In this document: piece by piece, positions 15,861 to 61,699 of the stretch
Layout: each line of letters opens with the position of its first letter
Position numbering within the stretch: the stretch's first letter is position 1
Assembly (NCBI GenBank): GCA_017964485.1
Contig: JAGCRW010000039.1
Location: 1,365 to 65,364, forward strand
Origin: Muribaculaceae bacterium
GTDB taxonomy: Bacteria > Bacteroidota > Bacteroidia > Bacteroidales > Muribaculaceae
Direction: 5' to 3'
Length of the DNA: 64,000 nt
Notes under the pieces: model-generated
The model's input: the letters and a program-made list of their open reading frames with translations, nothing else
What the model was told of the DNA's origin: nothing
The model's database searches: none
Position numbers and translations under genes: made by a program

Positions 15861-15921
15861 TGTATTTGGTTTTTACTAGACGTTCTAGAAGTTTCTAGAT
15901 TTACTAGACATTCTAGAAAAT

Positions 15922-43647: not shown

Positions 43648-43866
43648 TGATGTTTTATTATATAGTATAGTTTGTTATTAAGTTAATTGTAATGTGTGAG
43701 TGTGTCAAAACTCAGATTTAAAATAAACAACTGAATTATCTGATGTTTCTGATTTCTCTATATCCTGACTGACAATGTTTTAAAAAATTGCAAATAATCA
43801 GATTAATCAGAAAAATGCGGTTAAGCGAGTCAAAGCATGAGCTTGCTCAATGTCTTGCGAGCGTGT

Positions 43867-43935
43867 GCGTCAGCGGCAAACTAGCGTCAGCGGCAAACTA
43901 TGAACTATGAACTGTGAACTATGAACTATGAACTG
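43867..43935. repeat. Tandem repeats directly downstream of the P2 stop: 17-mer x2 then heptamer x5
   Basis: gcgtcagcggcaaacta x2 (43867-43900), then tgaacta/tgaactg x5 (43901-43935). The run ends 3 nt before the stop codon at 43939-43941. Confidence 0.85.
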
Positions 43936-43938
43936 CCT

Positions 43939-46900: not shown

Positions 46901-47190
46901 AGTGGTTTGTCGCCAATGGCGAGGATTTCCTCGGCACGGTCGTCACCCGAGACAATCACAAACGTGGTGGCCGTGTTGAAGATGTAATACACAGGAGTCT
47001 GAGCCTTCTCGCCCATCTCGGTCTTGATGAGCTTGGCATCGGCAGCTCCAGGCGCCATGAATTTGCCTGCATATACCTTGTTCATAAGATAGTGCTGAGC
47101 CTTAATTCTCGCCGTTGTCACATCAACGGGCGCCGCCATCAGTTGCACCGCAACCATAATGACGGTGAGTAGAGATAAAAGTTTTTTCAT
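43939..47190 (-). CDS. P2: secreted C10 cysteine peptidase with Ig-like repeats, module A, module B and dockerin-type module
   Basis: 1083 aa. N-terminus ~80% identical at DNA level to P1 and P3 by eye. CYTGCPATSASMILYHW (Cys), GGAGGHAFNVDGYAP (His), NFGWSGEGNSW. Module B aa 785-1027 (nt 44110-44838). Dockerin-type tail nt 43942-44109. Confidence 0.85.
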   Translation of the reverse strand: MKKLLSLLTVIMVAVQLMAAPVDVTTARIKAQHYLMNKVYAGKFMAPGAADAKLIKTEMGEKAQTPVYYIFNTATTFVIVSGDDRAEEILAIGDKPLNLDRIPANMQSWLDNYKQQLDWLLTHPDVKVDKPTAIKSPKLKGNLPIGPLLTAIWYQAAPFNDQCHFTYNGTTYECYTGCPATSASMILYHWKYPTHQVGPIPSYTTTLDLGEYNSVTYTYPALPAVTFDWDNMIDDYTGDYTPEQAAAVATLMRYVGQKEHMMYGTEGSGIFTSDTQGIADMYISFGYDASICRFVRKSDYSEDQWAQMVQEEIIHHRPVVYCGVDVGGAGGHAFNVDGYAPSLNKYHVNFGWSGEGNSWYAMNAFSARTYTFSDNQRMVLGIQPPIGRIIANPEQVSFNGFAGETYTEVVRVDAVNIASDITVDFTGSDLYSINATTITAEQAANGFDLVVTYAPAEAGNSEALLTLNCPDEDVAPVAVPITGAAMPRVPTLLVDPATLNFTTTKSSPVTKIITLTGAFLTNDVAVTLNDENGVFTVSPTAIPQSSTNVNTPLALTVTFNSAAVGDYNASVTITSEGAESKTVELMGKVVDGGTANDPYLDIAKYETIDAAGWNVSDIPNLYRYTEYEDQDCAWLTVSNYGVMMASSMQGWFTNNITESYSTSWNATDVFLGDDSYFGSKTSYACDWNGLNQYFYVTNCTQAKQYAYNRSSTYPLIMRIYECTLNPDGTVTAGSVPIDTKQSSVYNAAEVITSSELDASKIYMVNIYNDYSYLYEIGFKLPLATYPVSVATAATEITANSFVANWMPCEGADSYTLRVVPKNYDILTESFAKCTKAGSVDIDNSLDDFMDNTGWTGSKLYENIGGVRFGTGSSVGSLTSPDLTLTDNKVAVTFKAKAFNSDTNCNFKISCGNASETVTLPDNTEATYTVVLDCNPGAGQKIKFETTAGGKRVILTSIHVIDGEHAGAAKSIDYDGVTFTGITANSYKVLDLDASTTYFYDVKAVFGAKETSWSNVISVTTLAAGSQVYGDVDGDGVVTSVDVTCIYNYLLNGDTTYFDTCDVNGDGSITSVDITCIYNILLGE
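43942..44109 (-). other. Dockerin-type duplicated segment (P2)
   Basis: YGDVDGDGVVTSVDVTCIYNYLLNGDTTYFDTCDVNGDGSITSVDITCIYNILLGE. Confidence 0.7.
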
Positions 47191-47269
47191 CGAAATAAAG
47201 TGTAATGTTATATGTAAAATAGTTGTTTTATCAAGTGTTTCTCTAAATCGAAACTCGGTTTTTCAACCG

Positions 47270-47277
47270 CAAAGTTA
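47270..47277 (-). promoter_or_regulatory. -7 promoter box TAACTTTG (minus) for P2
   Basis: Plus-strand caaagtta, 80 nt upstream of the ATG at 47190. Confidence 0.45.
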
Positions 47278-47504
47278 ACCATTTTCTCTGAATAAAACCA
47301 CTATTTACACTAATTCGCTGTAATTGCCCCTAGCTGGGAAATAATTTTCAAACGAATAAGAACGATTAAAAACAAATTCATTAAATACTGAGTTTTGCCG
47401 CGCAAGCGCGGAAATTATAGAGCCTGCGGCTCTAAAATTTATTTTGCTTAGTCGCCTGCGGCGAGAAATCTTACAAATCTATAACAAATCATAAGATTTT
47501 AGAG

Positions 47505-47532
47505 CACAAAAAAGCGCCCCAGAGGGCGCTTA
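47505..47532 (-). terminator. Intrinsic terminator of P3
   Basis: AGCGCCC-caga-GGGCGCT. On the minus strand it is followed by TTTTTTGTG. It lies 37 nt downstream of the P3 stop. Confidence 0.75.
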
Positions 47533-47568
47533 ATTGTGAATTATGCAATGTGCATTCTACATTAAACA

Positions 47569-50500
47569 TTATTTTTTTGCTCCAAGGAGGATGTTGTAGA
47601 TGCATGTGATGTCGGTAGTTGTAACTACGCCATCGCCGTCAACATCGCAGGTGCTGAGGTAGGTCTCGTCACCATTGAGGAGATAGTTGTAGACGCATGT
47701 GATGTCGGTAGTTGTAACTACACCGTCGCCGTCAACGTCGCCATAGACACCAGCACCGCCGCCAAGTGTGGTAACCATAATCTGATTAGACCACTTGGTT
47801 TGCTTAGCGCCAAAGACAGCCTTCACGTCATAGATATAGGCAGTAGAAGGCAGCAGGTCGAGCACCTTGAAGCTATTGGTAGTGATGCCTGTGAAGGTGG
47901 CACCGTCCTCATCGATTGCGTTGAGGGTAGTGTTGCTGTGGTCGCCATCCTGGACGTGGATTCTAGTAATAACCACACGCTTGCCCTTAACCACATTCTC
48001 GAAGGTGATGGTCTGGTCGGCAGCGATGTCGCAGTCGAGAACAACGGTAAAGTTTGCCTCATTGTTGTCGGCGAGAGTCACTGTCTGGCTTGAGTTGCCG
48101 CAAGAAACCTTGAGCTCGCAGTCGGTGTCGTTGTTGAACGCCTTAGCTTTGAACTTAACGGTTACCTTGCCCTCGCTTGTGAGGAGGTTGAGTCCAGGCG
48201 AAGTTAAAGTGCCAGTTGTAGAGGCAGTGCCCAAACGCATGCCACCAATAGCCTCATAAACCCTGTAGCCAGTCCAGCCTGTATTGTCCATAAAGTTGTC
48301 GAGATTGTTACCGATATCCTGAGCGCCAGCCTTGGTGCACTTAGCGAATGTCTCTGTGAGGATGTCGTAGTTCTTAGGCGCTACTCGCAGGATGTAGCTG
48401 TCGGCGCCCTCGCACAGATTCCAGTTGGCGACGAAGCTATTGGCAGTGATCTCGGTTGCGTCGGTAGCAACAGGAGTCTCATAAGTGGTGAGTGGAGTCC
48501 TGAAGCCAATCTCCAAGAGGTCGGGATAAGAACCTCCACCAGTGAGCTTAACCATATAAATCTCGCCCTCGTCAAGATTGGCCGAAGTGATAACGCCGTT
48601 GCTGCCCGATTGAGTGTCGACAGCAGTAGTTGCTGGAGTTACACTTCCGTTGGCATTGAGCGTGCACTTGTAGATTGCCAATGTTGCCGAAGAGCTGCTG
48701 TAACCGCCACCCTTAACATAAGCCTTGACTTGTGTGCAGTTGGTCACATAGAATGACTGATAGTTGCTTCCATAAACCGAATAAGCCTGGTTGCTGCCAA
48801 AGTAAGCGTTCTGGCCTGGGAAGATATCATTAGCGTCCCAAGAATTGGAGTACTCGGTGAGCGAATTGCTGGCAAACCAGTTTTGGTTGGCATCGGCCTT
48901 AGCTGCACCATAGTTAGAAAGGGTGAGCCAAGCGCAGTCTTGCTCCTCATACTCTGTGTACTTGTAGATTGTGTTCATGCCAGTGACATTGGCGCCAGCC
49001 TCGTCGATAGTCTCATAATTAGCGATATTGAGGAATGGGTCGATAGCAGTGCCACCATCACGAGCGATACCGGTGAGGTTGACAGTCTTGCTCTCGGCGC
49101 CCTCGCTGGCAAATGTGATTGAGCCATTGAATGTGCCCTCAACCGACGAGCTGAATGAAACAGCAACAGTAACAGGGGTGTTGACATCGGTGCTGGTTTG
49201 AGGAATTGCTGTGGGTGTAACGGTGAATACACCATGAGTGTCATTGAGTGTGACAGTAACGTCATTGGTCAAGAACGCTCCGGTGAGCTCGATGGTCTTG
49301 GTCACTGTTCTGTCAAGTGTAGCGCTGAAGTCAAGGTTCTCGGCAGTAACAAGGAGTGTAGGAACTCGTGGAGCAGCTACACCAGTGATGGGAACAACAA
49401 CGTCCTCAACTTCCTCGTCGGCACACGAGAGAGTGATACTTGCTGAGGTGTTGCCTGCCTCAGTGGGAGCATAGGTAACCTCCACGTTAACACCAGCAGC
49501 TGCCTCGGCAGCAGTGAGAGAAGTGTGGCTGATGCTGTAAACATTGTCACCAGTCAGGGTGATATTAATATCGTTCTCAAGGTTGCGGGCCTGAACTTTC
49601 ACAATCTGAGTGTAGGTCTCACCTGCAAAGCCATCGAAGTTAACCTCCGAAGGATTGGCCTTAATCATGCCCATAGGAGGCTGAATACCGATAACCATCT
49701 GCTGGTCGCTGTTGAAGGTGTAGCCACCACCATCGGAGAAGGCATTCATGACACACCAATTGTTGCCGTCGCCACTCCAACCGAAGTTGATGTGATACTT
49801 GTTGGTATTGGAGTTATAACCATCAACGTTGAAGGCGTGACCGCCAGCGCCTGGGTCAACAGCCATATAGACTACAGGACGTCCCTCGGCCATCTCTTCT
49901 TGCAACATCTGTGCCCAAGCAGTCTCGCTGTAACTTGACTTGAGAACCAGCTGAGTAGTTGACTCATCATAGCCAAACTCAATAAACATATCGGCAACGT
50001 TCTGCGCATCGCTAGTGTAGATGCCACTACCGCCAGCTGAAGCGGTGCCATACATCATGTGCTCGGCATGGCCCACATAGCGCATGAGTGTAGCTACTGC
50101 TGCACCCTCTTCGGCAGTGTAGGGCTCGTTTTGTGTGGCGCCATTCTCATCATACCAAGTTCCATATTTGTCTTTCATGTTGTCCCAATCAAAGGTTACT
50201 TGGGGCAGAGTGGGATAATTGAAACTCACATCATTCCAGTAGCCAAGCGAAAGTGTGCCTGTAAAACCTTGCAGTGGGCCAACAGGCTCAACTGGGTATT
50301 TCCAATAGTAGAGCACCATCGAAGCCGATGTAGCAGGGCAACCAGTGTAGCATGTGTAGTTAGTGCCACTGTATGTGAAATGACACAGGTCGTTGTAGGG
50401 TGCCAACTGATCCCAGAGAGCGGTCAGCAGCGGGCCAATTACTGTGTTGACAAGTCCGCCGGACCTGAAAGTGGTGGGTTTGCTTACTTTCGCTTCGGGG

Positions 50501-50868
50501 TGAGTGAGGAGCCAGTCAAGCTGCTCCTTGTAGGTATTAAGCCATGCCTCCATGTTCTTGGGTATGCGCTCAAGCAATAGAGGTTTGTCACCATAGGCGA
50601 GGATTTCCTCGGCACGGTCGTCACCCGAAACAATCACGAAGGTTGTAGCAGTGTTGAAGATGTAGTACACTGGAGCAGCGGCTTTGTCGCCCATCTCGGT
50701 CTTGATAAGTTTGGCCTCGGTAGCTCCAGGAGCCATGATTTTGCCGGTATACACCTTGTTGGCAAGGTATTGCTCGGCCTTAGATTTTGCCGTTGACACG
50801 TCAACTGGCGCTGCCATCAGTTGCAAAGCAAACATAACGACAGTGAGTACTGATAAAAGCTTTTTCAT
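47569..50868 (-). CDS. P3: secreted C10 cysteine peptidase with Ig-like repeats, module A (GGGSYPDLL subtype), module B and dockerin-type module
   Basis: 1099 aa. CYTGCPATSASMVLYYW (Cys180), GAGGHAFNVDGYN (His344), NFGWSGDGNNW. Module A aa ~603-792 (nt 48493-49062). Dockerin-type tail nt 47572-47745. Confidence 0.85.
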   Translation of the reverse strand: MKKLLSVLTVVMFALQLMAAPVDVSTAKSKAEQYLANKVYTGKIMAPGATEAKLIKTEMGDKAAAPVYYIFNTATTFVIVSGDDRAEEILAYGDKPLLLERIPKNMEAWLNTYKEQLDWLLTHPEAKVSKPTTFRSGGLVNTVIGPLLTALWDQLAPYNDLCHFTYSGTNYTCYTGCPATSASMVLYYWKYPVEPVGPLQGFTGTLSLGYWNDVSFNYPTLPQVTFDWDNMKDKYGTWYDENGATQNEPYTAEEGAAVATLMRYVGHAEHMMYGTASAGGSGIYTSDAQNVADMFIEFGYDESTTQLVLKSSYSETAWAQMLQEEMAEGRPVVYMAVDPGAGGHAFNVDGYNSNTNKYHINFGWSGDGNNWCVMNAFSDGGGYTFNSDQQMVIGIQPPMGMIKANPSEVNFDGFAGETYTQIVKVQARNLENDINITLTGDNVYSISHTSLTAAEAAAGVNVEVTYAPTEAGNTSASITLSCADEEVEDVVVPITGVAAPRVPTLLVTAENLDFSATLDRTVTKTIELTGAFLTNDVTVTLNDTHGVFTVTPTAIPQTSTDVNTPVTVAVSFSSSVEGTFNGSITFASEGAESKTVNLTGIARDGGTAIDPFLNIANYETIDEAGANVTGMNTIYKYTEYEEQDCAWLTLSNYGAAKADANQNWFASNSLTEYSNSWDANDIFPGQNAYFGSNQAYSVYGSNYQSFYVTNCTQVKAYVKGGGYSSSSATLAIYKCTLNANGSVTPATTAVDTQSGSNGVITSANLDEGEIYMVKLTGGGSYPDLLEIGFRTPLTTYETPVATDATEITANSFVANWNLCEGADSYILRVAPKNYDILTETFAKCTKAGAQDIGNNLDNFMDNTGWTGYRVYEAIGGMRLGTASTTGTLTSPGLNLLTSEGKVTVKFKAKAFNNDTDCELKVSCGNSSQTVTLADNNEANFTVVLDCDIAADQTITFENVVKGKRVVITRIHVQDGDHSNTTLNAIDEDGATFTGITTNSFKVLDLLPSTAYIYDVKAVFGAKQTKWSNQIMVTTLGGGAGVYGDVDGDGVVTTTDITCVYNYLLNGDETYLSTCDVDGDGVVTTTDITCIYNILLGAKK
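47572..47745 (-). other. Dockerin-type duplicated segment (P3)
   Basis: YGDVDGDGVVTTTDITCVYNYLLNGDETYLSTCDVDGDGVVTTTDITCIYNILLGAKK. Confidence 0.7.
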
Positions 50869-50937
50869 TAATAGGTGTTTTTTAAAAAATGGATATAGTT
50901 GTTTTATAATAATTTATGCTAAATCTCAAAAAGCAGC

Positions 50938-50945
50938 CAAAGTTA
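50938..50945 (-). promoter_or_regulatory. -7 promoter box TAACTTTG (minus) for P3
   Basis: Plus-strand caaagtta, 70 nt upstream of the ATG at 50868. Confidence 0.45.
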
Positions 50946-51033
50946 CCTATAATTATGCTATTATGCAAAAGTAATGAATATTTTTTAGTAGTTTTTTAGT
51001 AGTTTTCAGATATAGCATGAATATATACTAAAG

Positions 51034-51067
51034 CAAGAGCCGCTCCATGATGATGGAACGGCTCTTG
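51034..51067 (-). terminator. Hairpin terminator of P4
   Basis: caagagccgctcca-tgatga-tggaacggctcttg (one mismatch), 21 nt downstream of the P4 stop. Near-identical to the hairpin at 53356-53389. Confidence 0.6.
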
Positions 51068-51088
51068 AGATTGTATTGAATAATTGTA

Positions 51089-53191
51089 TTATTGAGCGCC
51101 TAAGAGGACGTTGTAAACTACAGTTACATCGGTAGTAGTGATTACACCGTCGCCATCCTGATCGCCGTTAACCAAGTACTCAGTGTCGCCAGTGAGCAGG
51201 AAGTTGTAGAGTACAGTGACATCGACACTTGAAACAACACCATCGCCGTTAACGTCGCCAACTACAGGCTCACCAACAGTAAGAACTGTGAGAGTCATGT
51301 CATTTGAGTTAATGCGGAAGGTGTACTCACCACCTTGCTCAATGCGGAAGTTAGCGCCGTCAACCATAGCAAGTGGCTGGTTGAGCAGGTCGCCGTTGAT
51401 CAAGAAGTAACCAACACCATTGTCATCTTGGCCACCATACCAAGTCCAGCCATCCTCTGCAGGAGTGATAACCTTGAACTCAGCGCCAGCCTCGAGAGTG
51501 CCTTGAGTCTCATAAACGCCTTCGGTGGCTGTAGAGGTAAATACCAATCGACCGCCATCCTCGGCTTGATTCCAGTCATTGAATGTACCTACCACGTAGA
51601 ATTCCATTGGCTCAACGTCTTCATCCTCAATGAACAGGTTTTCGGGCCATGGCTTGATGCAGATTGGAATTTGGTTAGACCAGTCGCTCTCCTGACCGTC
51701 GTAATAAACGGAGCGAACATCGTAAACATAGTAGCCGTAGTCCATGATCTGGATAGACATATCAATTTGCTGATTGCCTGCTGCATTTGTATAATAACCA
51801 AAGTGGAAGCTGGTGCTGTCGCTAGGAATATTATGAACGAAAACGGTGTCGCCACTCCATGCGGGCTGTATATACCTAGGAGAAGCAACATTCTGTGGCT
51901 CGCTGTAATCGCCATAATAAACCTTCATGTCGGTTATCGCAATGCGATGGTCGCCGCCATCTTCATAATTGCCCATGTTCTGGAACAAATAGATGGTGTG
52001 GAAAATCGAATAATAATTGGGAAATTCCCTATCCATTACAAAGGTGTACCACTTCTCGGGACCAGATACTACTATTGTCGAATCCATAGTGCCGCCGTTT
52101 ACTCTGAGCAGGCAATCGGTAGCATCGCCATAGGGTTTTGCCTTAACCTTAAGAGTGAATTTCTTAACGTAACGATAGATAACAACATCGTCTTCCATTG
52201 GCGATTGAAGCATACCATTAACATCAATCACAACTCCGCCGTCGGTTCCGCTTATGTTGCGGCCGTACCAGCCGTCGTGATCAGTCTTGCCATCGATGTG
52301 AGCATAATCCTCATATACGTCACCCTCGCTGCAATTTGGGAATTTCTCGCGGTAAACCAAGCCTTCTTGAGTGTCGGTTGGGTAAACTCGTATTGAGTAG
52401 CTCTTGGCTCCTGGGCATGGACTCCAATGGCAAGCAAAGCCTTCGCAGAGAATGGCATCTGACTCAGGATTATCAGGATAAACTGGATGAGTAGTGATAT
52501 CTGTTACGTCATAAGCCTCGGGAGTAGTGATCTCACCTACTTCACCTGGAGTCTTGAAAGCTATCTCATAGAGATAAGCGTAGGCGTTAGCAACCTCTAC
52601 CATGTAAATCTTCTCAGGATCGAGAGTACTTGAAGCAAGTATTTCGACGCCAATTTCAGAGTTCTGAACTGTCTCAACAGGATTAGCATCAGGAGTGATA
52701 GAGCCGTCGGCATTACGTGTGCACTCATAGATGTTCATCTTTGTGAGATAGTAAGAAGAGTTACTGCGGTGATAGGCATAGAGCTTAACCTGTGTGCAGT
52801 AAGTCACATAGTAGGTCTGTTTCTTAGTGGGCTGCTTGTACTTTGCCGAATAAGCAGTGTTGCTGCCAAAGTAGGCGGCAGGGCCTTGGAAGATGTCGGT
52901 AGCTGTCCATGGACCAGTGTAGTTGCTGGTGTTGTCGGCATCGGTAATTTCATTGGTAAACCAGTTTTGAGTAGCGTCGGTCTGCATCACGCCATAGCAA
53001 GAGAGAGTCAGCCAATAATTTCCATTGACTTCGTTGTACTTGTAAATAGTCTCCATTCCATCAACAGTAGCTCCAGCCTGATCGATGGTGGCATACTTAA
53101 TGGGGTTGAGGTAGGCATCGCTAGCGGTGCCTGCAGCCATCATTGGCAGAACAACCGCCATGACAGTCAATAGGGATAATAGTTTTTTCAT
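51089..53191 (-). CDS. P4: protease-less paralog (signal peptide + module A + divergent module B + CBM-like beta-sandwich + dockerin-type module)
   Basis: 700 aa. The signal peptide MKKLLSLLTVMAVVLPMMAA is near-identical to that of P1 and is joined directly to module A (GTASDAYLNPIKYATIDQAGATVDGMETIYKY...YLYEIAFKTP). There are no C10/S8 motifs and no Ig repeats. A unique ~125-aa segment MEFYVVGTFNDWNQ...EFKVITPAEDGWTWYG...YTFRINSNDMTLTV follows. Dockerin-type tail nt 51092-51262. Confidence 0.8.
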   Translation of the reverse strand: MKKLLSLLTVMAVVLPMMAAGTASDAYLNPIKYATIDQAGATVDGMETIYKYNEVNGNYWLTLSCYGVMQTDATQNWFTNEITDADNTSNYTGPWTATDIFQGPAAYFGSNTAYSAKYKQPTKKQTYYVTYCTQVKLYAYHRSNSSYYLTKMNIYECTRNADGSITPDANPVETVQNSEIGVEILASSTLDPEKIYMVEVANAYAYLYEIAFKTPGEVGEITTPEAYDVTDITTHPVYPDNPESDAILCEGFACHWSPCPGAKSYSIRVYPTDTQEGLVYREKFPNCSEGDVYEDYAHIDGKTDHDGWYGRNISGTDGGVVIDVNGMLQSPMEDDVVIYRYVKKFTLKVKAKPYGDATDCLLRVNGGTMDSTIVVSGPEKWYTFVMDREFPNYYSIFHTIYLFQNMGNYEDGGDHRIAITDMKVYYGDYSEPQNVASPRYIQPAWSGDTVFVHNIPSDSTSFHFGYYTNAAGNQQIDMSIQIMDYGYYVYDVRSVYYDGQESDWSNQIPICIKPWPENLFIEDEDVEPMEFYVVGTFNDWNQAEDGGRLVFTSTATEGVYETQGTLEAGAEFKVITPAEDGWTWYGGQDDNGVGYFLINGDLLNQPLAMVDGANFRIEQGGEYTFRINSNDMTLTVLTVGEPVVGDVNGDGVVSSVDVTVLYNFLLTGDTEYLVNGDQDGDGVITTTDVTVVYNVLLGAQ
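51092..51262 (-). other. Dockerin-type duplicated segment, V-class (P4)
   Basis: VGDVNGDGVVSSVDVTVLYNFLLTGDTEYLVNGDQDGDGVITTTDVTVVYNVLLGAQ. Confidence 0.7.
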
Positions 53192-53267
53192 TAAATGTAA
53201 AATTTAAATTGTGGATATAGTTGTTTTATTTTATGCTTAAAAGTTTATTCAATGTCTAAAAAGCCGT

Positions 53268-53275
53268 CAAAGATA
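53268..53275 (-). promoter_or_regulatory. -7 promoter box TATCTTTG (minus) for P4
   Basis: Plus-strand caaagata, 77 nt upstream of the ATG at 53191. Confidence 0.45.
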
Positions 53276-53355
53276 CTAATAATTATGTTAATATGCAAGA
53301 AAGGGGGATATTTTTTGTTGTTTTTTAGTATTATAGGACTTTAGCAGTAACAAAG

Positions 53356-53389
53356 CAAGAGCCGCTCCAGGATAGTGGAACGGCTCTTG
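53356..53389 (-). terminator. Hairpin terminator of P5
   Basis: caagagccgctcca-ggatag-tggaacggctcttg, 20 nt downstream of the P5 stop. Paralogous to 51034-51067. Confidence 0.6.
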
Positions 53390-53409
53390 AGATTTATAGG
53401 ATAATTGTA

Positions 53410-56400
53410 TTATTGACCGCCTAGGAGGACGTTATACACTACAGTCACATCGGTAGTGGTGATTACACCATCGCCATCTTGATCTCCGTTGACCAAGAAC
53501 TCAGTGTCGCCAGTGAGCAAGTAGTTGTAGAGTACAGTGACATCGACACTGGAAACAACACCATCACCGTTAACGTCGCCAAGAACAGGAACAACGATGT
53601 CGTCCTTGAGAGTGGTAACCTCAATCAGGTTAGACCAGTTGCTCTCCTTATTGCCGAAGAGGGCCTTCACATCATAGATGTAGGTAGTCTCGGGCTCAAG
53701 ACCGATAACGGTATAGCTAGTGGCTGTGATTCCAGGGAACAGCATCTCGCCAGCAGCCTTAGCAGAGCCTGTTGTGATATCGCCCGAATAAATCTCGATG
53801 CCAGTGATAATCACGCGCTTGCGGTTGGCTGTTGTAGCAAATGTAACGTTCTGTCCAGCAGATGCCGAGCAGTCAAGCACTTGGGTGTATTGGGTCTCGG
53901 TGTTGTTTGGAATTGTAACTGTCTCGCTATTGCTGCCGCAAGAAATTGTCATATTGCAGTTAGTGTCGTTATTATAAGTCTTAGCCTTATAAACAATGCT
54001 AACCTTGCCATTGCTGCCTGTAAGGTCGAGAGCAGGGCTGATGAGAGTCCCCTTTGCATTACTAGAACCTAAACGGATGCCACCTACAGCAGTATAAACA
54101 GTTGAACCAGTCCAACCGGCATTGTCCATGTAGTTGTTGAGCGAGTTGCCAACGTCATTAGAGCCATTAGTAGTGCAGTTGCTGAATCCCTCAGTGAGGA
54201 GCAGAGTGTAGGCAGGAGCCTCAGGCTTAGGCATCACGCGCAGGGTGTAGCTTGTGGCGCCATCGCAGGCATTCCAGTTGGCAGTAAATTCATTAACACC
54301 AATCTCGGTAGCCTCGGTGGCTACTGGAGTCTCAATGCCCTCAATAGGAGTTTGGAAAGCAATCTCATAAATGCGAGAGTAGTCATTGTAGATTCTCACC
54401 TTGTAAATCTTGCTTGGATCCAAGGTTACTGAAGAGAGTATTTCGTCTTGATTAGTGGTTTGAGTCTCTTTATAATCAACAGTAGAGATGCCAGCAGATA
54501 GAGTTCCGTCGGCATTCAATGTGCACTCATAAATCTCCATCTTCAATGGATAAACATTGCCACTGTTATAAGAAGACTGGATGTTGTAAGAGAGTTGCTT
54601 AACCTGAGTACAGTTAGTTACATAGAAGTTCTGGTATGCCTCGTTCCAGTTGCAATAATAAGCTGTTCCTGTGAAGTAGCTGCTACTTCCCTGGAAGATA
54701 CCATTGGCGGTCCAAGAGCCTTCGGCGTTCTTCTCGTTGCCTTCATAGTCGAGCCAGTTCTGGTTGATATCGGCTTGCTCAGCACCATAGTAGGAAACGG
54801 TGAGCCAAGCGCAGGCATCGCCAGGATACTCAGTGTACTTGTAGATTGAACTCATGCCGCTAACTGTAGCGCCAGCCTCATCAATAGTCTCATACTTGGC
54901 GATGTTGAGATATGGATCGCTTGCAGTGCCGCCGTCGTTGGCCTTAGCTGTGAGCTGAACGGTCTTGGTATCGGCGCCATTGCTGGCGATTGTAAGCGAG
55001 CCATTGAAGTTGCCCTCGTTGGCCGAACTGAATGTCACTGTAACTGGAACACCATTGGCTGCGTTGGCAGCGGTGATAGTGGTTGGCGAAACACTGAACA
55101 CACCGTTGTTGTCGTTCAAAGTCACTGTAATATTGTTAGTCAGGAACAAACCAGTAACATTGATGGTCTTGCTGACAGTTGACGACAAGTTTGCGTTGAA
55201 ATTGAGCGAAGTGGGGTCAACGTTGATGGTTGGAACCTTGGCTTGGGCTGAACCTGTAACGTTCACTGTCACGCTCTCGGCATTGGTGCTGGCGAGAGTG
55301 ATATAAGCGTTGGCGTTGCCAACTTCGGTGGGCTTGTAGGTTACTGTCACCTGCACGCCATTGGCTGCATTGGCAGCGGTGATGGTGGTAGGAGAAACAG
55401 TGAAGTAGTTTGAACCTTGTTTATTGACGGTAATGTTGCCCTCGAGGTTATAGCCTGTAACTGTGAAGGTCTGAGTGTAGGTATCACCAACAAAGCCCTC
55501 AAATGCGAGGCTGGTAGGATTAACAACGATATTTGGGCCTAAAGCGCCAGCGGGAGGCTCAATGCCGATAATCATAGCCTCGCCATAATTGAAGGTGTAA
55601 GAACCCGACTGACCAGTAGCACCAACGGCAGTAGTGAAGTTGTGCAGAGTGCAGTAGCCATTGCATTGGCCACTCCAACCCCAGTTCACATAATACTTAC
55701 CACTGCTATCGCAGCCAAACACATTGAAAGCATGACCTGCAGGCTGGTAACTGCTGCAGTCATAAGCGAGATATTCAATGGGGCGTCCTGCCTGCAACTC
55801 GGCCATCATCCATTCGTTCCATTGAGCGTCGGTGTATTGCGCGGGACCATTGGTGTAACTCCATCCCGACGAAACCAGTTCGTTAAGGGTAAGCAACTGT
55901 GCATCGGTATAACCCATAGTGTGGCAAGCCTCAAGAATCTCTGGGTCGTTGGCACCACTGGCATCAGTGCCATACTCCATGGTACAAGCCTGGCCCACAT
56001 AACGCATCAGCCAAGCAACAGCATCGGCTTGTGCCGAAGTATAGGAGGCTGAATGAGTGCTGCTATTATCATCATACCAAGTGCCGTAATGGTCAACGAT
56101 GTTGCCCCAATCGGCTGCTCTTTCAGGCAGAGCATCGGCAGCGAGACCGTAGTAGCTTTGTGGAATAGCGGCAATGGCGGGATAGGTGGTAGGCCATTTC
56201 CACTTATAGAAACACATAGCCAACGAAGTGGCAGGGCAGCCAGTTACGGCATGTGTGTTGCCACTGGTTGGGGTGTGGTTGTAGTAAGGAGCGCTCTGGT
56301 CCCATGTAGCGGTTACCAGCGGAGCAATAGCTGTTGCACGTGGTGAGTAGTTGTTAGGGATCATCGTTCCAGCCTTGAGACCGTCAATCTGATATTTGTA

Positions 56401-56757
56401 CTTGTTGAGCAGCCATTTCATTGCGGGAGGAATCTTGTCCAAATCGAGGTTTCCACCTACACCATACATCAGGATTTCTGGTGCCAGGTCATCACCAGCA
56501 ACAACGACATAGGATTTGTCGGTGGTGAAGATGTAGTAGTCTACCGCTTCAGGATTGGCTACCGAGGCCTCGGCCTTGACGAGCTTTAGATTGCTGGTGG
56601 TTTCAGCTTTCATGTGGCCAGCAGCCACTTGTCTTGACAAGAATGATCTTGCCACATTTTGCGCGACAGTCAAGTCAATGTCGGCTGCCTGCATCTGTGC
56701 CGCCATGCACAGCAAGAGTGCCAATGACGACAACTTTAATAGGTTAAAAAATTTCAT
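53410..56757 (-). CDS. P5: secreted C10 cysteine peptidase (divergent head) with Ig-like repeats, module A, module B and dockerin-type module
   Basis: 1115 aa. VTGCPATSLAMCFYKW (Cys), QPAGHAFNVFGCD (His), VNWGWSGQCNGY. Two Ig-like repeats. Module A (DGGTASDPYLNIAKYETIDEAGATVSGMSSIYKY...RIYEIAFQTP). Module B. Dockerin-type tail nt 53413-53583. Confidence 0.85.
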   Translation of the reverse strand: MKFFNLLKLSSLALLLCMAAQMQAADIDLTVAQNVARSFLSRQVAAGHMKAETTSNLKLVKAEASVANPEAVDYYIFTTDKSYVVVAGDDLAPEILMYGVGGNLDLDKIPPAMKWLLNKYKYQIDGLKAGTMIPNNYSPRATAIAPLVTATWDQSAPYYNHTPTSGNTHAVTGCPATSLAMCFYKWKWPTTYPAIAAIPQSYYGLAADALPERAADWGNIVDHYGTWYDDNSSTHSASYTSAQADAVAWLMRYVGQACTMEYGTDASGANDPEILEACHTMGYTDAQLLTLNELVSSGWSYTNGPAQYTDAQWNEWMMAELQAGRPIEYLAYDCSSYQPAGHAFNVFGCDSSGKYYVNWGWSGQCNGYCTLHNFTTAVGATGQSGSYTFNYGEAMIIGIEPPAGALGPNIVVNPTSLAFEGFVGDTYTQTFTVTGYNLEGNITVNKQGSNYFTVSPTTITAANAANGVQVTVTYKPTEVGNANAYITLASTNAESVTVNVTGSAQAKVPTINVDPTSLNFNANLSSTVSKTINVTGLFLTNNITVTLNDNNGVFSVSPTTITAANAANGVPVTVTFSSANEGNFNGSLTIASNGADTKTVQLTAKANDGGTASDPYLNIAKYETIDEAGATVSGMSSIYKYTEYPGDACAWLTVSYYGAEQADINQNWLDYEGNEKNAEGSWTANGIFQGSSSYFTGTAYYCNWNEAYQNFYVTNCTQVKQLSYNIQSSYNSGNVYPLKMEIYECTLNADGTLSAGISTVDYKETQTTNQDEILSSVTLDPSKIYKVRIYNDYSRIYEIAFQTPIEGIETPVATEATEIGVNEFTANWNACDGATSYTLRVMPKPEAPAYTLLLTEGFSNCTTNGSNDVGNSLNNYMDNAGWTGSTVYTAVGGIRLGSSNAKGTLISPALDLTGSNGKVSIVYKAKTYNNDTNCNMTISCGSNSETVTIPNNTETQYTQVLDCSASAGQNVTFATTANRKRVIITGIEIYSGDITTGSAKAAGEMLFPGITATSYTVIGLEPETTYIYDVKALFGNKESNWSNLIEVTTLKDDIVVPVLGDVNGDGVVSSVDVTVLYNYLLTGDTEFLVNGDQDGDGVITTTDVTVVYNVLLGGQ
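53413..53583 (-). other. Dockerin-type duplicated segment, V-class (P5)
   Basis: LGDVNGDGVVSSVDVTVLYNYLLTGDTEFLVNGDQDGDGVITTTDVTVVYNVLLGGQ. Confidence 0.7.
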
Positions 56758-56768
56758 TCAATACAAAG

Positions 56769-56840
56769 TTTGAATAAATCAGGCTGCACCTCGGCAATGC
56801 TCATGAAAGCATGGCACTACTCTCGGCTTGCACTGATTTT
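56769..56840 (-). repeat. 72-nt conserved noncoding element, copy 2 (inside the 5' leader of P5)
   Basis: tttgaataaatcaggctgcacctcggcaatgctcatgaaagcatggcactactctcggcttgcactgatttt matches 10716-10787 at 60/72 positions. It starts 11 nt upstream of the P5 ATG. Confidence 0.7.
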
Positions 56841-56900
56841 AGTTAATAATATAGTTGTTTTATAATTAGTTTTTGCTTGGTTTATGTTTATAAAAACCGC

Positions 56901-56908
56901 CAAAGATA
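56901..56908 (-). promoter_or_regulatory. -7 promoter box TATCTTTG (minus) for P5
   Basis: Plus-strand caaagata, 144 nt upstream of the ATG at 56757. The leader is about 70 nt longer than in P2-P4. Confidence 0.45.
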
Positions 56909-56973
56909 TATATAATATTTCATATAACCAACTTTTTCTTATCACTTTCAATAGTCATCTATATTTTCTCAAC

Positions 56974-57003
56974 AAAAAAACCGCCCCTAAGGACGGTTTT
57001 TTA
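56974..57003 (-). terminator. Intrinsic terminator of P6
   Basis: aaaccgccc-ctaa-ggacggttt (one mismatch) flanked by A and T runs, 40 nt downstream of the P6 stop. Confidence 0.7.
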
Positions 57004-57043
57004 TTTTAGTATTTTCTAGAAGCTATAGACTAACTAGGACTTA

Positions 57044-60000
57044 TCACTTAACCACAACTTTTTTATTGCCTACGACGTAGATGCCTGCTGGGAGGTTTTG
57101 TGTTGCCTCGCCGGCCTTAACGTTGCGGCGGATGAGCTGACCTTGAGCGTTGTAAACGTTCACAATCTCATTGTAGCTATCCATGCCGATGGTGTTAACA
57201 GCAGTTGGCGTTCCAGGCATGCGCAGCGCGTAACCAATGTAGTTCTGGAAGTCATAGTCATAGTCTAGTGGAGCAATGCCGGCTTCATTGTGCCAAGGCT
57301 CCTTGAGGTTGATAGCGCAGCGTACGGTGTAGCGCTGTCCGTTCACCATAGTGTTGGTGTTAGCACCCCAAGTGTAGTCAATAGTCATACTCTGACCTTG
57401 TGCACTACCATTAGCACCTTGATAAGCGCGGAGAGCGCCTTCGGCAGCGTTCCACCAACCAGTCACGTCAACAACCTGGTTGCTTACTAATGTGAATGAC
57501 TCAGCGAGGTTGATAGGCTCAATGTAGTTCACATAATCAGGGCTTATTGGATCTTTGCCCTCAGGTTGCACAGTAACGGTGAGTACTGGGTTAAGCTCGA
57601 TGCCACTGAGTGTGCCCTTGAGTGTTCCGCCCTTGATGAGAACACTCTCAGCAAACACATCAAACACGTCATTATCGGGTGCTGCAATGCGAATCCAGTT
57701 GCCCTCGCCGTCGGTGAGGAAGGCGTAGTTCTCAACATCGGCAACGTCAACCATTATTAGGTCGTTGCTAACGGTGTATTCCTGATTGTTCACGCCATTC
57801 TCAAGGATGTAGGCGAGAGTAGTCTCTTCCTCCACAACGATTGGAGTCTGGAAGCCTACTGCCAAGAGGTCGGGATAAGAGCCGCCACCAGTCAAGACAA
57901 CCTTATAAATCTTAGAAGCGTCAAGAGTTGCCGAAGTTATCACAGCCAAGCCACTTGCGCCGCCTTGCTGCGAGTCAAATGGAGTAGATGCAGCTACAGG
58001 TTGTCCATTAACGCCTACTGTGCACTCATAGACTGCCAAAGTTGCTTTACTGCTGCTACCATCCTTAACCAAGGCCTTAGCCTGGGTGCAGTTGGTCACA
58101 TAGAAGGTTTGGCTTCCACTACCATAAATACCGTATGCTTGGTTGGTGCCAAAGAATGCATCATCAATTGGGAATATATCGGTAGCGGTCCAAGAGTTGT
58201 TGTACTGATTCAGCGATGAGGTTTCGAGCCAGTTTTGGTTGGCATCAGTCTGCTTGGCACCGTATGTGGAGATTGTGAGCCAGCCGCAGTTGTCGGCCGC
58301 ATACTCGGCGTAGTTGTAAATTGATGTCATGTAATTTACTGATGCACCTGCATCATCAATAGTGGCATACTTGGCGATGTTGAGATAAGCGTCGCTTGCA
58401 GTGCCACCATCGTTGCAACGGCCAGTGAGGTTCACTGTGGTTGTGAGAGTGCCACTTGTGAGGGTGATAGTGCCTTGGCAACTTGCCTCCTCGTCGCTCT
58501 CGAAGGTTACGGTGAGCTGTGTGCCAGCCTCTGCATCGGCCTTGCTGATAGTGGTAGCCGAAACAGTGAATACGTTGTCAGGATCGTTCAAAGCCACAGT
58601 CACGTCGCCTGGGAGCATCTTGCCGCGCACGCTGATAGTGGCGGTGCCAGTCTCGCCAGGAGCAGAAGTGATTGTCACGTTGCTTGGGTCAGCAACAATC
58701 ATAGGCTGGTTGAGCTCGGTCTTGAAGCCAATCTCCAAGAGGTCGGGATAAGAGCCGCCACCAGTAAGTTGCACCTTATAAATCTTTGTTGGATCAAGTC
58801 CGGCCGAAGTTATCACACCATTGTTGCTTTGCTTAGTATCGGTTGCTGTATTTGATGGTGTGATAGAGCCATCACCATTGAGTGTGCACTCATAGATTGT
58901 CAGTTTAGCATTTGAGCTAGAAGAGCTGCCACCCTTAACGTAAGCCTTTGCTTGTACGCAGTTGGTAACGTAGAAGGTTTGGCTTCCATTTCCATAAATA
59001 GAATAAGAATTGTTGCTGCCGAAGTAAGCATCATCACCTTGGAAGACATCGGTCGCACTCCAAGTGTTGGTATATTGTGACAAATCTGAGGTCTCATACC
59101 AATTCTGGGTATCATCGGCTCTAAATGCACCATAGTTGCAAACGGTGAGCCAAGCTGCATCGCCATCCTCGGTGTACTTGTAAATTGTCGACATGCCGCT
59201 CACTGTAGCGCCAGCCTCATCGATAGTGGCATACTTAGCGATGTTGAGATATGGATCGGCAGCAGTGCCACCGTCATTAGCCTGAGCATTGAGGGCAACG
59301 GTCTTAGTCTCGCCACCTGGGGTGGTGAATGCTACAGAGCCGCTATATGTTGCCTCCTCATCGCCCGAAGTGAAGGTCACAGTCACTTGAACTGGAGTGT
59401 TCTCACTGATGCTATTCTTAGGAATAGTGGTTGGCGAAACGCTGAACACGCCGTTCTGGTCATTGAGTGTTACAGTCACATCGCCAGTAAGGAAGAGACC
59501 TGTAACGTCGATAGTCTTACTAATTGTTGATGACAGAGCAGCTTTAAAGTCTAATGTCTCGGGATTAACGATAACAGTTGGAACTCGTGGAGCAGCCACA
59601 CCAGTAACGGGCACAGTCACAGCCTCGGCACCATTGCTGGTGAGAGTGAGAGTGGCATTGGTGTTACCAGCCGCTGTTGGAGCATAAGTCACTGTCACGT
59701 CAACGCCATTGTTAGCATCATCGGCACTGATGGTGGTTGGAGTCACGCTGTAAACGTTAGCGCCACTCTTGGCGATGCTGATGTTGCCGGTGAGGTTGTA
59801 ACCCTTCACGTTGATGGTCTGGGTATAGGTCTCGCCAACATAGCCCTCAAAGTTCACCTCATCAGGAGTAGCCTTGATGACTGGACCTTGGTTATTGAGA
59901 ATATACTCGATGCCTGCCAGAGCATTGATAATACCATGACCACGCTGCTTAGCAGGGCTGGTTGGGTTGGTGAATTGTGTTGCTGTATTAGCAATCACGT

Positions 60001-61699
60001 CCTTCACACGATCCACATCAAGAGTTGGGTCGGCCTGCAGATACAGAACCACCACACCTGCGGCAGTAGGAGTAGCCATTGATGTTCCGCTCATCTGACC
60101 CCACTTGTAGGTGGTGCCGTTATAAGTGGTTGTCCAAGTAGAAGATTGACCAGAGTCATATCCGTTAACCGATGATATGTTGTAGTGGCCAGGGGCGGTG
60201 ATGAATGGCTGGTCAATGCCATTGCAGTCAGTACCATAGCTCGAGAAGTAGGCTATGTCGCCAGTAGCGTATGAGCCGTTGCTGGTGTTACGTGTACACA
60301 TGGCGCCTACACCAATCACCTTAGTTGCGCACATGTCGTCGCACATCGAGTTCTCGTAGGTACCAGGGGTAAGTGTGTATCCGCTCACGCTGCCCGAAGT
60401 GCCCAGCTCGCTGTAATAGCAGTCGGTGTAAACATGCACAGTATTTCCTGCACTACCCTTTATGATGTAGTAGGCTGATGAATTGCTGCTTTCGATATAC
60501 AGGTTATAGCGGCCACTATACTGATCCACGCCACCTGAAACAGAGACATTGTTATATGTACCGCTGGTCATCCAATCGCTCTGATTACTGCCGACAACCA
60601 CCTTAACTTGCAGCTGGTCGCCAGTACTGTTCCAAATGTCGCAAGAACCACCATAATAGGTGTAACTTACATTGTGACGCACCATCATGTAGTCGGAGCT
60701 GCTTGAGAGAGTCTTCACGGCAGCACCAGTGATGTCAGCCTCATTGCCTGCGGCAAGAAGAATCACTGCACCATAGGTCTCGGCCACCTCGGTATAGGCG
60801 CGTGAAATAGCGCTGGTACCATCGTGAGGTCCTATGTCGCTACCCAAGCTGATACTGATAACGCAAGGCTTGCCAAGGACGTTCTTGGCATAGTTGGCGA
60901 TATACTTTGCCGAACTAACGATAGCAGTCTCGGTAAGTTGAGAACCGCAACCGCAGAGGACGAGGTCGGCCTCAGGTGCCATACCAGCATAGTTGCCCAC
61001 ATGTGAGCCAGCAGCGCAACCTGTGGTGTGCGTTCCGTGGCTCTCGCCACTGTCGTCGCATGTGAGGTTGCCAATCTGGCTGGCAGTCGTGTACTGGTAG
61101 CCCATCAGCTGCACGCCGTCAATAGTAGCTTTGGTACCGCCGTTGGCGCTTGAAGCGTTAGGCATATACACCGCTTTTACACGAGTGTTGCCGTTGTCAT
61201 CAAGGAATGCGCGGTGGTTGAACTGGATACCATCATCAATGATACCAAGCACCACACCTTGACCAGTGTAGCCCTGTGGCAGACCATAGTTGGTGCCGTC
61301 CCATGCCTTATCGGCATTAACATAGGTCTTAGCGACATCGGTAAAGAGTCGCGCGTTACGGGCGATGCCCACTTGCTTGACGCTCTTGAGTCGCGCCACA
61401 GCTTCAATCTTGTCAACAGGAACGCTGGCAGCCACAAACCCTTTGAAAGTGCTGGTCACCTTAACACCCAAAGCCTCGATTTCGGCTGTAGATGCGCCAT
61501 TAAGGTCAATGAAGCACTCAATATACTCTACTCCATTGATAGCCTTAGGCTGAGCTAGCACGCCCTTCCCGTTGGGAGCCTGTGCCGCGGCATTAGCGCG
61601 TTGCTGCAGGAACACCTGCGTCGGTGCGCTTAGCTTGTCCTGTGCCATCATAGCCAAGGACACGCCAAGTGTCATTAGTAATAAGAAGAATTTTCTCAT
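57044..61699 (-). CDS. P6: secreted S8 (subtilisin-type) serine peptidase with Ig-like repeats, two copies of module A, a unique domain and a T9SS C-terminal sorting domain
   Basis: 1551 aa. Signal peptide and propeptide. Triad motifs VVLGIIDDG (Asp155), GESHGTHTTG (His221), SGTSMATP (Ser540), and oxyanion AAGNE; S8 region about nt 59900-61282. Module A copies at aa 808-995 (nt 58715-59278) and aa 1096-1286 (nt 57842-58414). Unique region aa ~1288-1495 (nt 57215-57838). C-terminus EIVNVYNAQGQLIRRNVKAGEATQNLPAGIYVVGNKKVVVK fits the Por_Secre_tail type-A CTD. Confidence 0.9.
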   Translation of the reverse strand: MRKFFLLLMTLGVSLAMMAQDKLSAPTQVFLQQRANAAAQAPNGKGVLAQPKAINGVEYIECFIDLNGASTAEIEALGVKVTSTFKGFVAASVPVDKIEAVARLKSVKQVGIARNARLFTDVAKTYVNADKAWDGTNYGLPQGYTGQGVVLGIIDDGIQFNHRAFLDDNGNTRVKAVYMPNASSANGGTKATIDGVQLMGYQYTTASQIGNLTCDDSGESHGTHTTGCAAGSHVGNYAGMAPEADLVLCGCGSQLTETAIVSSAKYIANYAKNVLGKPCVISISLGSDIGPHDGTSAISRAYTEVAETYGAVILLAAGNEADITGAAVKTLSSSSDYMMVRHNVSYTYYGGSCDIWNSTGDQLQVKVVVGSNQSDWMTSGTYNNVSVSGGVDQYSGRYNLYIESSNSSAYYIIKGSAGNTVHVYTDCYYSELGTSGSVSGYTLTPGTYENSMCDDMCATKVIGVGAMCTRNTSNGSYATGDIAYFSSYGTDCNGIDQPFITAPGHYNISSVNGYDSGQSSTWTTTYNGTTYKWGQMSGTSMATPTAAGVVVLYLQADPTLDVDRVKDVIANTATQFTNPTSPAKQRGHGIINALAGIEYILNNQGPVIKATPDEVNFEGYVGETYTQTINVKGYNLTGNISIAKSGANVYSVTPTTISADDANNGVDVTVTYAPTAAGNTNATLTLTSNGAEAVTVPVTGVAAPRVPTVIVNPETLDFKAALSSTISKTIDVTGLFLTGDVTVTLNDQNGVFSVSPTTIPKNSISENTPVQVTVTFTSGDEEATYSGSVAFTTPGGETKTVALNAQANDGGTAADPYLNIAKYATIDEAGATVSGMSTIYKYTEDGDAAWLTVCNYGAFRADDTQNWYETSDLSQYTNTWSATDVFQGDDAYFGSNNSYSIYGNGSQTFYVTNCVQAKAYVKGGSSSSSNAKLTIYECTLNGDGSITPSNTATDTKQSNNGVITSAGLDPTKIYKVQLTGGGSYPDLLEIGFKTELNQPMIVADPSNVTITSAPGETGTATISVRGKMLPGDVTVALNDPDNVFTVSATTISKADAEAGTQLTVTFESDEEASCQGTITLTSGTLTTTVNLTGRCNDGGTASDAYLNIAKYATIDDAGASVNYMTSIYNYAEYAADNCGWLTISTYGAKQTDANQNWLETSSLNQYNNSWTATDIFPIDDAFFGTNQAYGIYGSGSQTFYVTNCTQAKALVKDGSSSKATLAVYECTVGVNGQPVAASTPFDSQQGGASGLAVITSATLDASKIYKVVLTGGGSYPDLLAVGFQTPIVVEEETTLAYILENGVNNQEYTVSNDLIMVDVADVENYAFLTDGEGNWIRIAAPDNDVFDVFAESVLIKGGTLKGTLSGIELNPVLTVTVQPEGKDPISPDYVNYIEPINLAESFTLVSNQVVDVTGWWNAAEGALRAYQGANGSAQGQSMTIDYTWGANTNTMVNGQRYTVRCAINLKEPWHNEAGIAPLDYDYDFQNYIGYALRMPGTPTAVNTIGMDSYNEIVNVYNAQGQLIRRNVKAGEATQNLPAGIYVVGNKKVVVK
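57047..57211 (-). other. T9SS C-terminal sorting domain (type A CTD) coding segment
   Basis: ...VNTIGMDSYNEIVNVYNAQGQLIRRNVKAGEATQNLPAGIYVVGNKKVVVK. The pattern V(Y)(x)(x)(x)G(x)L(V/I)...L(x)(x)GIY(V/I)V...K is typical of Por secretion tails. Confidence 0.75.
57842..58414 (-). repeat. Module A, second copy within P6
   Basis: NDGGTASDAYLNIAKYATIDDAGASVNYMTSIYNY...QTFYVTNCTQAKALVKDG...VYECTV...KIYKVVLTGGGSYPDLLAVGFQTP. Confidence 0.8.
58715..59278 (-). repeat. Module A, first copy within P6
   Basis: NDGGTAADPYLNIAKYATIDEAGATVSGMSTIYKY...QTFYVTNCVQAKAYVKGG...IYECTL...KIYKVQLTGGGSYPDLLEIGFKTE. Confidence 0.8.

Follow-up and report, generated by a model that had tools for sequence, protein, structure and literature searches.

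A subtilase-headed gene with exchangeable C-terminal tails in a mosaic paralog array of uncultured rumen Bacteroidales

For a decade, reports on rumen Bacteroidetes have described dockerin-bearing proteins for which neither a partner nor an export route is known (PMC6487960, PMC6071333). Bensoussan et al. (2016) described non-cellulosomal dockerin proteins from these bacteria, including a type named 'Streptopain/peptidase C10-DOC' (PMC6487960), and bins from the camel rumen were found to hold dockerins without cohesins (PMC6071333). Two further reports mention both dockerins and the type IX secretion system (T9SS), but leave them unconnected in Bacteroidales (PMC10266427, PMC8810776), and none of these four sources proposes for dockerins of this kind a connection with the T9SS, a partner module or an exchange of tails. 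Here, we describe an array of dockerin-tailed proteins in a 64,000-nucleotide stretch (the window) of contig JAGCRW010000039.1, from a Muribaculaceae bacterium, and in particular the gene P6, which carries a probable T9SS-type C-terminal domain (CTD) in the place where its neighbours carry a dockerin.

P6 is probably a secreted, multi-domain, CspB-like subtilase of uncultured rumen Bacteroidales, one member of a fast-shuffling array of paralogs and not the anchor of that array. Near-identical sister genes end in a dockerin where P6 has its tail, and we therefore read P6 as one of the mosaic proteins in a protease family rather than as an anchor for its neighbours. The P6 orthologs of two sister metagenome-assembled genomes (MAGs), at loci L003 and L005, share 98.8% identity along 3889 bp, a stretch that begins before the start codon and runs to where the second copy of a repeated module (module A-2) ends. 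Beyond this point, ~990 bp in L003 encode the CTD and, before it, a domain of ~210 amino acids (aa) here called modC, versus ~347 bp in L005 encoding a dockerin; identity is back at 94.6% downstream. The dockerin of the L005 gene is 98.2% identical to that of its upstream neighbour, versus ~79% for the gene bodies; gene conversion is therefore its most likely origin. Both tail alleles lie inside one 90% protein cluster, each on several independent contigs. That tail types are swapped on one chassis had been stated in a preliminary description of this locus, and the sister genes bear it out in a sharper form than was claimed. Since the dockerin and the pair of modC and T9SS tail interchange in alleles that are ~99% identical, we argue that each solves one and the same targeting problem in its own way.

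The 1551-aa reading frame of P6, on the minus strand at 57044-61699, was confirmed as previously delimited. Its parts are as follows:

61643..61699 (-), aa 1-19: Sec (signal peptidase I) signal peptide, read by eye; predicted cleavage between MMA and QDK
61280..61642 (-), aa 20-140: N-terminal pro-region, subtilase-propeptide-like, upstream of the Pfam S8 match
59906..61279 (-), aa 141-598: peptidase S8 catalytic domain (PF00082), with D155, H221, N319 and S540
60320..60739 (-), ~aa 321-460: main insertion in the S8 domain, from the gap relative to subtilisin and the split PDB matches
59285..59890 (-), aa 604-805: immunoglobulin (Ig)-like repeats 1 and 2, from weak Pfam Ig_CFAP65/ASH and NCBIfam choice_anch_D matches and a custom profile hidden Markov model (HMM)
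58715..59278 (-), aa 808-995: module A copy 1, modelled as a beta jelly roll like that of carbohydrate-binding modules (CBMs); BLASTP matches to all paralogs
58418..58708 (-), aa 998-1094: Ig-like repeat 3, from BLASTP and custom HMM
57842..58414 (-), aa 1096-1286: module A copy 2, from BLASTP and custom HMM
57200..57829 (-), aa 1291-1500: modC, from homologs; predicted two OB-like beta barrels
57047..57199 (-), aa 1501-1551: short T9SS type-A-like C-terminal tail, from its TIGR04183 and PF18962 scores

A scan of species-representative genomes with P6 returned 27 loci, all from MAGs of uncultured ruminant Bacteroidales, with inconsistent NCBI labels (Muribaculaceae, Prevotellaceae, Porphyromonadaceae, Bacteroidales). 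A twin of P6 (MBR5118455.1) is named 'S8 family serine peptidase [Muribaculaceae bacterium]' by NCBI, and the P6 stretch is present in bovine gut and rumen metagenomes. With one HMM per module, built from the window proteins, all open reading frames (ORFs) of the fetched loci were scanned. The array is syntenic in ~12 rumen MAG loci, in which heads, bodies and tails recombine. The head is of the S8 or C10 peptidase type or is missing altogether; it is followed by two to four Ig-like repeats, by one to three copies of module A and, in some members, by a module B, and the protein ends either in a dockerin or in modC and CTD. This last cassette is found on true P6 orthologs in L002, L003, L004 and L006, on the C10-headed paralogs L003_18967 and L005_12459 (where it follows module B), on an S8 protein with module B in L009 and, as far as modC, on a C10-headed protein with two [Ig + A] units in L013. 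The P6 orthologs of L005 and L011, two other MAG species, have the same chassis (S8, two Ig, A, Ig, A) with a dockerin at the end. A second swap concerns amylase-like proteins, which are 68% identical through modC between L021 and L022 and then end in a type-b CTD and in a dockerin, respectively. We propose that neighbouring paralogs trade modules through recombination or gene conversion, with breakpoints at the module boundaries. In four metagenomes, looked at non-exhaustively for the species of the window, no alternative joint or dockerin allele was seen at the junction of module A-2 and modC. P0200 (1348 aa), considered as a third dockerin allele, was ruled out as a frameshifted fragment.

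The array itself comprises large genes that all have the same orientation, with the five dockerin-tailed paralogs P1-P5 spanning 41098..56757 (-):

41098-43647 (-): P1, Inhibitor_I69 (Spi-inhibitor) and Peptidase_C10 head, Ig-like repeats, Dockerin_1 tail (Pfam)
43939-47190 (-): P2, Inhibitor_I69 (Spi-inhibitor) and Peptidase_C10 head, Ig-like repeats, Dockerin_1 tail (Pfam)
47569-50868 (-): P3, Inhibitor_I69 (Spi-inhibitor) and Peptidase_C10 head, Ig-like repeats, Dockerin_1 tail (Pfam)
51089-53191 (-): P4, without protease head; signal peptide, module A, module-B-like region, unassigned ~130-aa stretch, dockerin
53410-56757 (-): P5, Inhibitor_I69 (Spi-inhibitor) and Peptidase_C10 head, Ig-like repeats, Dockerin_1 tail (Pfam)
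57044-61699 (-): P6, Peptidase_S8 head, dockerin-less (Pfam)
61890 to past 64000 (-): P7, cut by the window edge, with only its 3' part inside

A type I dockerin (PF00404) is present in the six neighbours P1-P5 and P7, with 38.5-51.7 bits against a cut-off of 22.9, and both calcium-binding DxDxDG repeats are visible at their C-termini. The exact P6 protein is also encoded on a 94-kb metagenome contig (L001), where the array goes on: the full P7 (1303 aa) consists of an S8 head, two Ig-like repeats, module A, module B and a dockerin, and is joined there by P8 (1150 aa), with an S8 head and a dockerin. The first Ig-like repeat of P7 differs by several residues between the window (63880-64000) and L001 (~7700-7830), for example EITFEGYAGE versus EINFEVYAGE, P6 being identical; the window therefore belongs to another strain or assembly than L001. 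Orthologs of the headless P4 are kept in L004, L005 and L007. Module B (P2, P3, P5 and P7; e.g., 47700-48480) looks like an fn3 domain with an insert of ~150 aa, and matches the N-terminal two-thirds of NCBIfam NF052644, a 'T9SS-dependent surface endonuclease', with E-values of 5e-10 to 7e-11, far below the cut-off of that family.

The head of P6 matches PF00082 over aa 146-585 (E=6.7e-29; 101.5 bits versus a cut-off of 21.8) and displays the catalytic motifs in canonical order: IDDG (D155), HGTH (H221), AGNE (N319, the oxyanion residue) and GTSMATP (S540). These motifs would make P6 a protease. The spacing between N319 and S540 is 221 aa, versus 66 in subtilisin BPN', or ~155 extra residues; alignment to BPN' places them in one block of ~112-135 aa directly after N319 and in smaller insertions, and the PDB matches to the head are split accordingly between query residues 143-322 and 475-594. 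The nearest solved relative is CspB (4i0w, E=1.8e-15), and the NCBIfam model for CspBA (NF040809) gives E=1.7e-15 with 55.7 bits, far under the family cut-off of 1250. That extra residues separate the oxyanion Asn from the catalytic Ser had been listed among the features that set P6 apart from its neighbours; the insertion is present, but the dockerin-tailed P7 and P8 have the same head with the same insertion. At the N-terminus, MRKFFLLLMTLGVSLAMMA is followed by Q, so that, on a by-eye reading, cleavage would leave an N-terminal Gln (the QDKLSAP position). P7, P8 and the orthologs share the conserved region from aa 20 to 140, which presumably acts as a propeptide.

The internal duplication of one Ig-like repeat with module A, as first described, was recovered in P6 as aa 706-995 versus aa 998-1286, with 54% identity (E=2e-94), and both copies match the Ig and module A part of every neighbour by BLASTP. 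The AlphaFold model of module A is a jelly roll (pLDDT 73.6), for which the best Foldseek matches are modules of the CBM6/22/35 type (E-values of 3e-4 to 1e-3, TM 0.3-0.5). A CBM-like jelly roll is thus the predicted fold of module A; a cohesin, also considered, was ruled out by these matches. A word-index search returned 11 homologs of module A, all in this rumen lineage. In the P6 ortholog of L006 (12076-16707), module A-2 is only 48.7% identical to that of P6, versus 78-85% in other orthologs, and its sequence is in the style of a P1/P5-type module A; it looks like a module-level replacement within an otherwise orthologous gene.

The ~210-aa region before the tail had been singled out as unique and unassignable. 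It has indeed no family in Pfam or NCBIfam (no match over aa 1288-1500), but is not unique beyond the window. Twelve homologs were recovered at first, and a profile search in 1.84 billion representative proteins gave 205 clusters at E<=1e-3, so that modC stands for a family of at least 205 clusters. Architectures were counted in the best 150 of these, with tails typed by custom HMMs (CTD-a and CTD-b) and by motif. modC is the second-to-last domain in ~95% of them, at a median distance of 57 aa from modC to the C-terminus, and is followed by CTD-a or CTD-b in 110, by a tail that is CTD-like by motif in 28-32, and by a dockerin in four. The hosts are varied: proteases, amylase-like proteins, chitobiase-domain proteins and leucine-rich repeat (LRR) proteins. 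The AlphaFold model of modC shows two beta barrels (pLDDT 79.5) with a weak Foldseek likeness to tandem OB folds (HIN-200, SSB, RPA; best E=1e-3, TM 0.34-0.45), from which we predict a pair of OB-like barrels. No cohesin appears among the top 50 Foldseek matches; modC as a cohesin was ruled out, the matches being to the OB fold only. Binding of glycans by module A and modC would be a guess from these models.

These folds bear on the proposal, made in the preliminary description, that P6 is the surface anchor or scaffold of the array, with the dockerins of P1-P5 and P7 bound to its module A or to modC. P6 is the sole CTD-tailed member among the window ORFs and holds two copies of module A, and its dockerin-tailed neighbours lack a recognised outer-membrane export signal. 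The proposal is nevertheless unsupported, since P6 has no Pfam match to the cohesin family (PF00963), and modC is OB-like and module A CBM-like, cohesins being absent from the top 50 Foldseek matches of either. Module A is carried by nearly all paralogs, the dockerin-tailed ones included, and is therefore not a receptor specific to P6. The P6 orthologs of L005 and L011 themselves end in a dockerin, a CTD-tailed member is missing from the syntenic arrays of L007 and L008 as fetched, two such members with C10 heads occur in other arrays, and the cassette of modC and CTD is also borne by such paralogs and by unrelated enzymes. We hold the anchor role very unlikely and, on this evidence from models and families, P6 would contain no dockerin receptor. 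Still more improbable, to the point of being almost negligible, is an assembly artefact in which faulty assembly of repeats attached modC and CTD to an S8 paralog. Repeats do abound in the array, and Logan unitigs break in its paralogous stretches; nevertheless, the exact 1551-aa P6 occurs on at least two contigs and its twin on six, the same architecture is found in five MAG species, and single unitigs from two runs cover 56400-57891 (from the CTD through modC and across the joint with module A-2) with zero mismatch.

The nature of the tail is a closer question. A Por-type CTD had been assigned to P6; the T9SS-type tail stands, as a borderline match. Against a cut-off of 23, the TIGR04183 score rises as the scanned part shrinks, from 17.3 bits (whole protein) through 21.8 (last 266 aa) to 25.0 (last 55 aa), the match covering only profile positions 16-56 of 72; PF18962 gives 18.3 bits versus a cut-off of 27, and the type-B model (TIGR04131) has no match on the tail at E<=10. 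AlphaFold places four strands in aa 1512-1550, not the seven of the CTD fold, with a linker of low confidence. Many of the sister tail types behind modC score only 0-19 bits. These low and partial scores would suit a tail that is no working T9SS signal, but a degenerate remnant or an unrelated beta-hairpin, P6 then travelling like its dockerin-tailed paralogs (periplasm, vesicles or lysis). This is improbable in our judgement, as the tail is 53-86% identical across five P6 orthologs, lies always at the extreme C-terminus, and has its like at the end of ~95% of the modC proteins. Two orthologous tails score 24.5 and 22.6 bits with TIGR04183. MAG RUG228, in which the array is also present, encodes an endonuclease with a longer, canonical CTD of this style, and this one exceeds the cut-off at 26.7 bits over positions 15-72. 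One related locus, described below, has porV beside genes with such tails. The P6 tail ends at the stop codon of a protein with a by-eye Sec signal at its N-terminus. From sequence, it is a probable shortened type-A CTD, and may well work as a T9SS signal.

Some points weigh against P6 as a secreted T9SS-type subtilase. The tail matches the CTD models over a short length and at the borderline, staying under threshold for the full protein and for the Pfam model, and only four strands are modelled in it. No T9SS core gene (porK/L/M/N, sprA/sov, porU, porV) was found among the 20 window ORFs scanned. The protease activity is read from motifs only; the folds of module A and modC are medium-confidence models with weak Foldseek scores, their glycan-binding roles being guesses.

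For P6 as a secreted mosaic protease, the following course can be envisaged. The protein would be exported by Sec, as read from its N-terminus, and would fold in the periplasm. It might then cross the outer membrane via the T9SS by means of its short type-A-like tail, as suggested by the borderline HMM matches and the family pattern, and be released or fixed at the cell surface, with modC probably the domain nearest the membrane after tail removal. Covalent surface linkage is established for type-A cargo of Porphyromonas and Tannerella, not for all T9SS cargo. The two CBM-like A modules and the three Ig-like spacers, judging from the predicted folds, could set the protease on a glycan-bearing substrate. 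The tail would set the mode of export or attachment, flipping between modC with CTD and dockerin in otherwise near-identical genes.

Other proteins with modC are more suitable candidates for a dockerin anchor. In 33 of the best 150 modC matches, an N-terminal module of ~140 aa, here called modX, was found. Thirty of these 33 carriers are small (380-500 aa) and consist of signal peptide, modX, modC and CTD; two larger proteins have the order Big_2, modX, Dockerin_1, modX, modC and CTD at their C-terminal end. A protein with three tandem modX is encoded in locus L077. The modX-modC-CTD proteins form a subset of P0041-P0169 (loci L029, L032-L043, L045-L056 and L077), and their MAGs share an NCBI label with that of P6. 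A word-index search returned one modX homolog. With a 20-sequence profile of modX, the top three PDB matches are cohesins of R. flavefaciens (E-values of 0.005-0.02), and Cohesin (PF00963) is the top Pfam family, for three of the 20 members, the best reaching 21.9 bits versus a cut-off of 24.1 (E=2.2e-4, positions 11-122 of 139). As this match is below cut-off and the hhalign comparison of modX with Coh2 of C. thermocellum CipA was not significant, the assignment of modX as a cohesin is tentative.

The gene context supports the cohesin-like reading of modX. In the P0050-like subfamily, genes for BspA-type LRR proteins start within ~30 bp after the modX-modC-CTD gene, and carry a dockerin, a CTD and often further modX; a more distant subfamily (L065-L073) is without a dockerin neighbour. 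At L043, in a different organism from that of the window, the pair of modX-modC-CTD and LRR-dockerin genes has porV (PF19572; 10438-11622) directly after it, which links the pair physically to the T9SS. When the L043 PorV was run by phmmer against all 122 fetched loci, it found only itself. The modX HMM found nothing in the window. The window has, outside the array at 24200-26140 (+), a 646-aa protein with BspA-type LRR, Big_2 and Dockerin_1, which is of the same kind as those encoded beside modX genes elsewhere, without a modX gene nearby.

Tentatively, and from sequence comparison, the modX-modC-CTD proteins are thus better candidates than P6 for a dockerin anchor. The idea behind the anchor proposal, that dockerin tails in this organism would need a partner delivered by the T9SS, has in them a concrete candidate. 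A broader picture can be drawn, which we regard as speculative and somewhat doubtful: rumen Bacteroidales of this lineage would run a T9SS-built cohesin-dockerin display, with modX-modC-CTD proteins as anchors. P1-P5, P7-P9 and the product of the 24200-26140 gene, as dockerin-tailed proteases or BspA-type LRR proteins, would be displayed on these anchors, and might even travel out with them, bound, through the wide T9SS pore; the flip between modC with CTD and dockerin in P6 orthologs would then switch the enzyme between direct and indirect anchoring. The modX-modC-CTD proteins may be the missing partner of the Bacteroidetes dockerins, and such a display, if true, would give these 'orphan' dockerins their partner.

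Around the array, genes for histidine utilisation (hutU, a fused ftcD/cyclohydrolase, hutH and hutI) lie at 13860-17613 (-) and 38277-40993 (+), and the end of hutI is ~100 bp from P1. Their position beside the array fits a proteolytic, amino-acid-fermenting lifestyle. A single 827-aa ORF at 26279-28762 (-) fuses a Mur ligase middle domain to a complete alanine racemase. The guanine-cytosine content of the window dips at 4-6 kb (0.41) and at 12-14 kb (0.38); the first of these low patches, which holds an A1S_2505-family phage non-structural N-terminal domain (4214-5287, -; E=1.7e-39), may be the remnant of a mobile element.

The annotation of P6 is improved by this analysis to a T9SS-type, CBM-bearing subtilase, the T9SS type of its tail being probable, in a proteolytic island flanked by histidine-utilisation genes. 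Two module families new to Pfam and NCBIfam were defined, the CTD-adjacent modC and the CBM-like module A, and cohesin-like T9SS cargo is flagged as a source of candidate dockerin receptors.

Among known systems, the dockerin proteins of rumen Bacteroidetes are of the same kind as P1-P5 and P7-P9, with protease or other heads and a C-terminal type I dockerin; P6 itself differs in being dockerin-less. The head of P6 is best matched in sequence by the CspB-type subtilases (CspB of Clostridium perfringens, 4i0w), in which the oxyanion Asn and the catalytic Ser are likewise separated by a large insertion. CspB differs in being a Firmicutes protease of spore germination that has no Ig, CBM or CTD modules. 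In its overall layout, P6 resembles the type-A cargo proteases of the T9SS in Porphyromonas gingivalis, the gingipains RgpB and Kgp and the C10 protease PrtT: a Sec signal, a pro-region, a protease domain, Ig-like spacers and, at the extreme C-terminus, a sorting tail of the TIGR04183 kind, the match being borderline in P6. In contrast to these, its head is a CspB-like S8 domain, not C25 or C10, its tail of ~50 aa matches only the middle of TIGR04183 and is swapped for a dockerin in near-identical orthologs, and modC, a domain of 210 aa with two predicted barrels, invariably lies before that tail in its family. The modX-modC-CTD proteins share the logic of the anchoring scaffoldins of cellulosomes, in which a cohesin is fixed by SLH domains or sortase (e.g., ScaE of R. 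flavefaciens), as they would combine a dockerin receptor with a surface attachment signal and are encoded beside dockerin genes. They differ from these scaffoldins in belonging to diderm Bacteroidales, in having a T9SS tail instead of SLH or sortase signals and in a cohesin match below threshold, and P6 differs from them in carrying no cohesin-like module.

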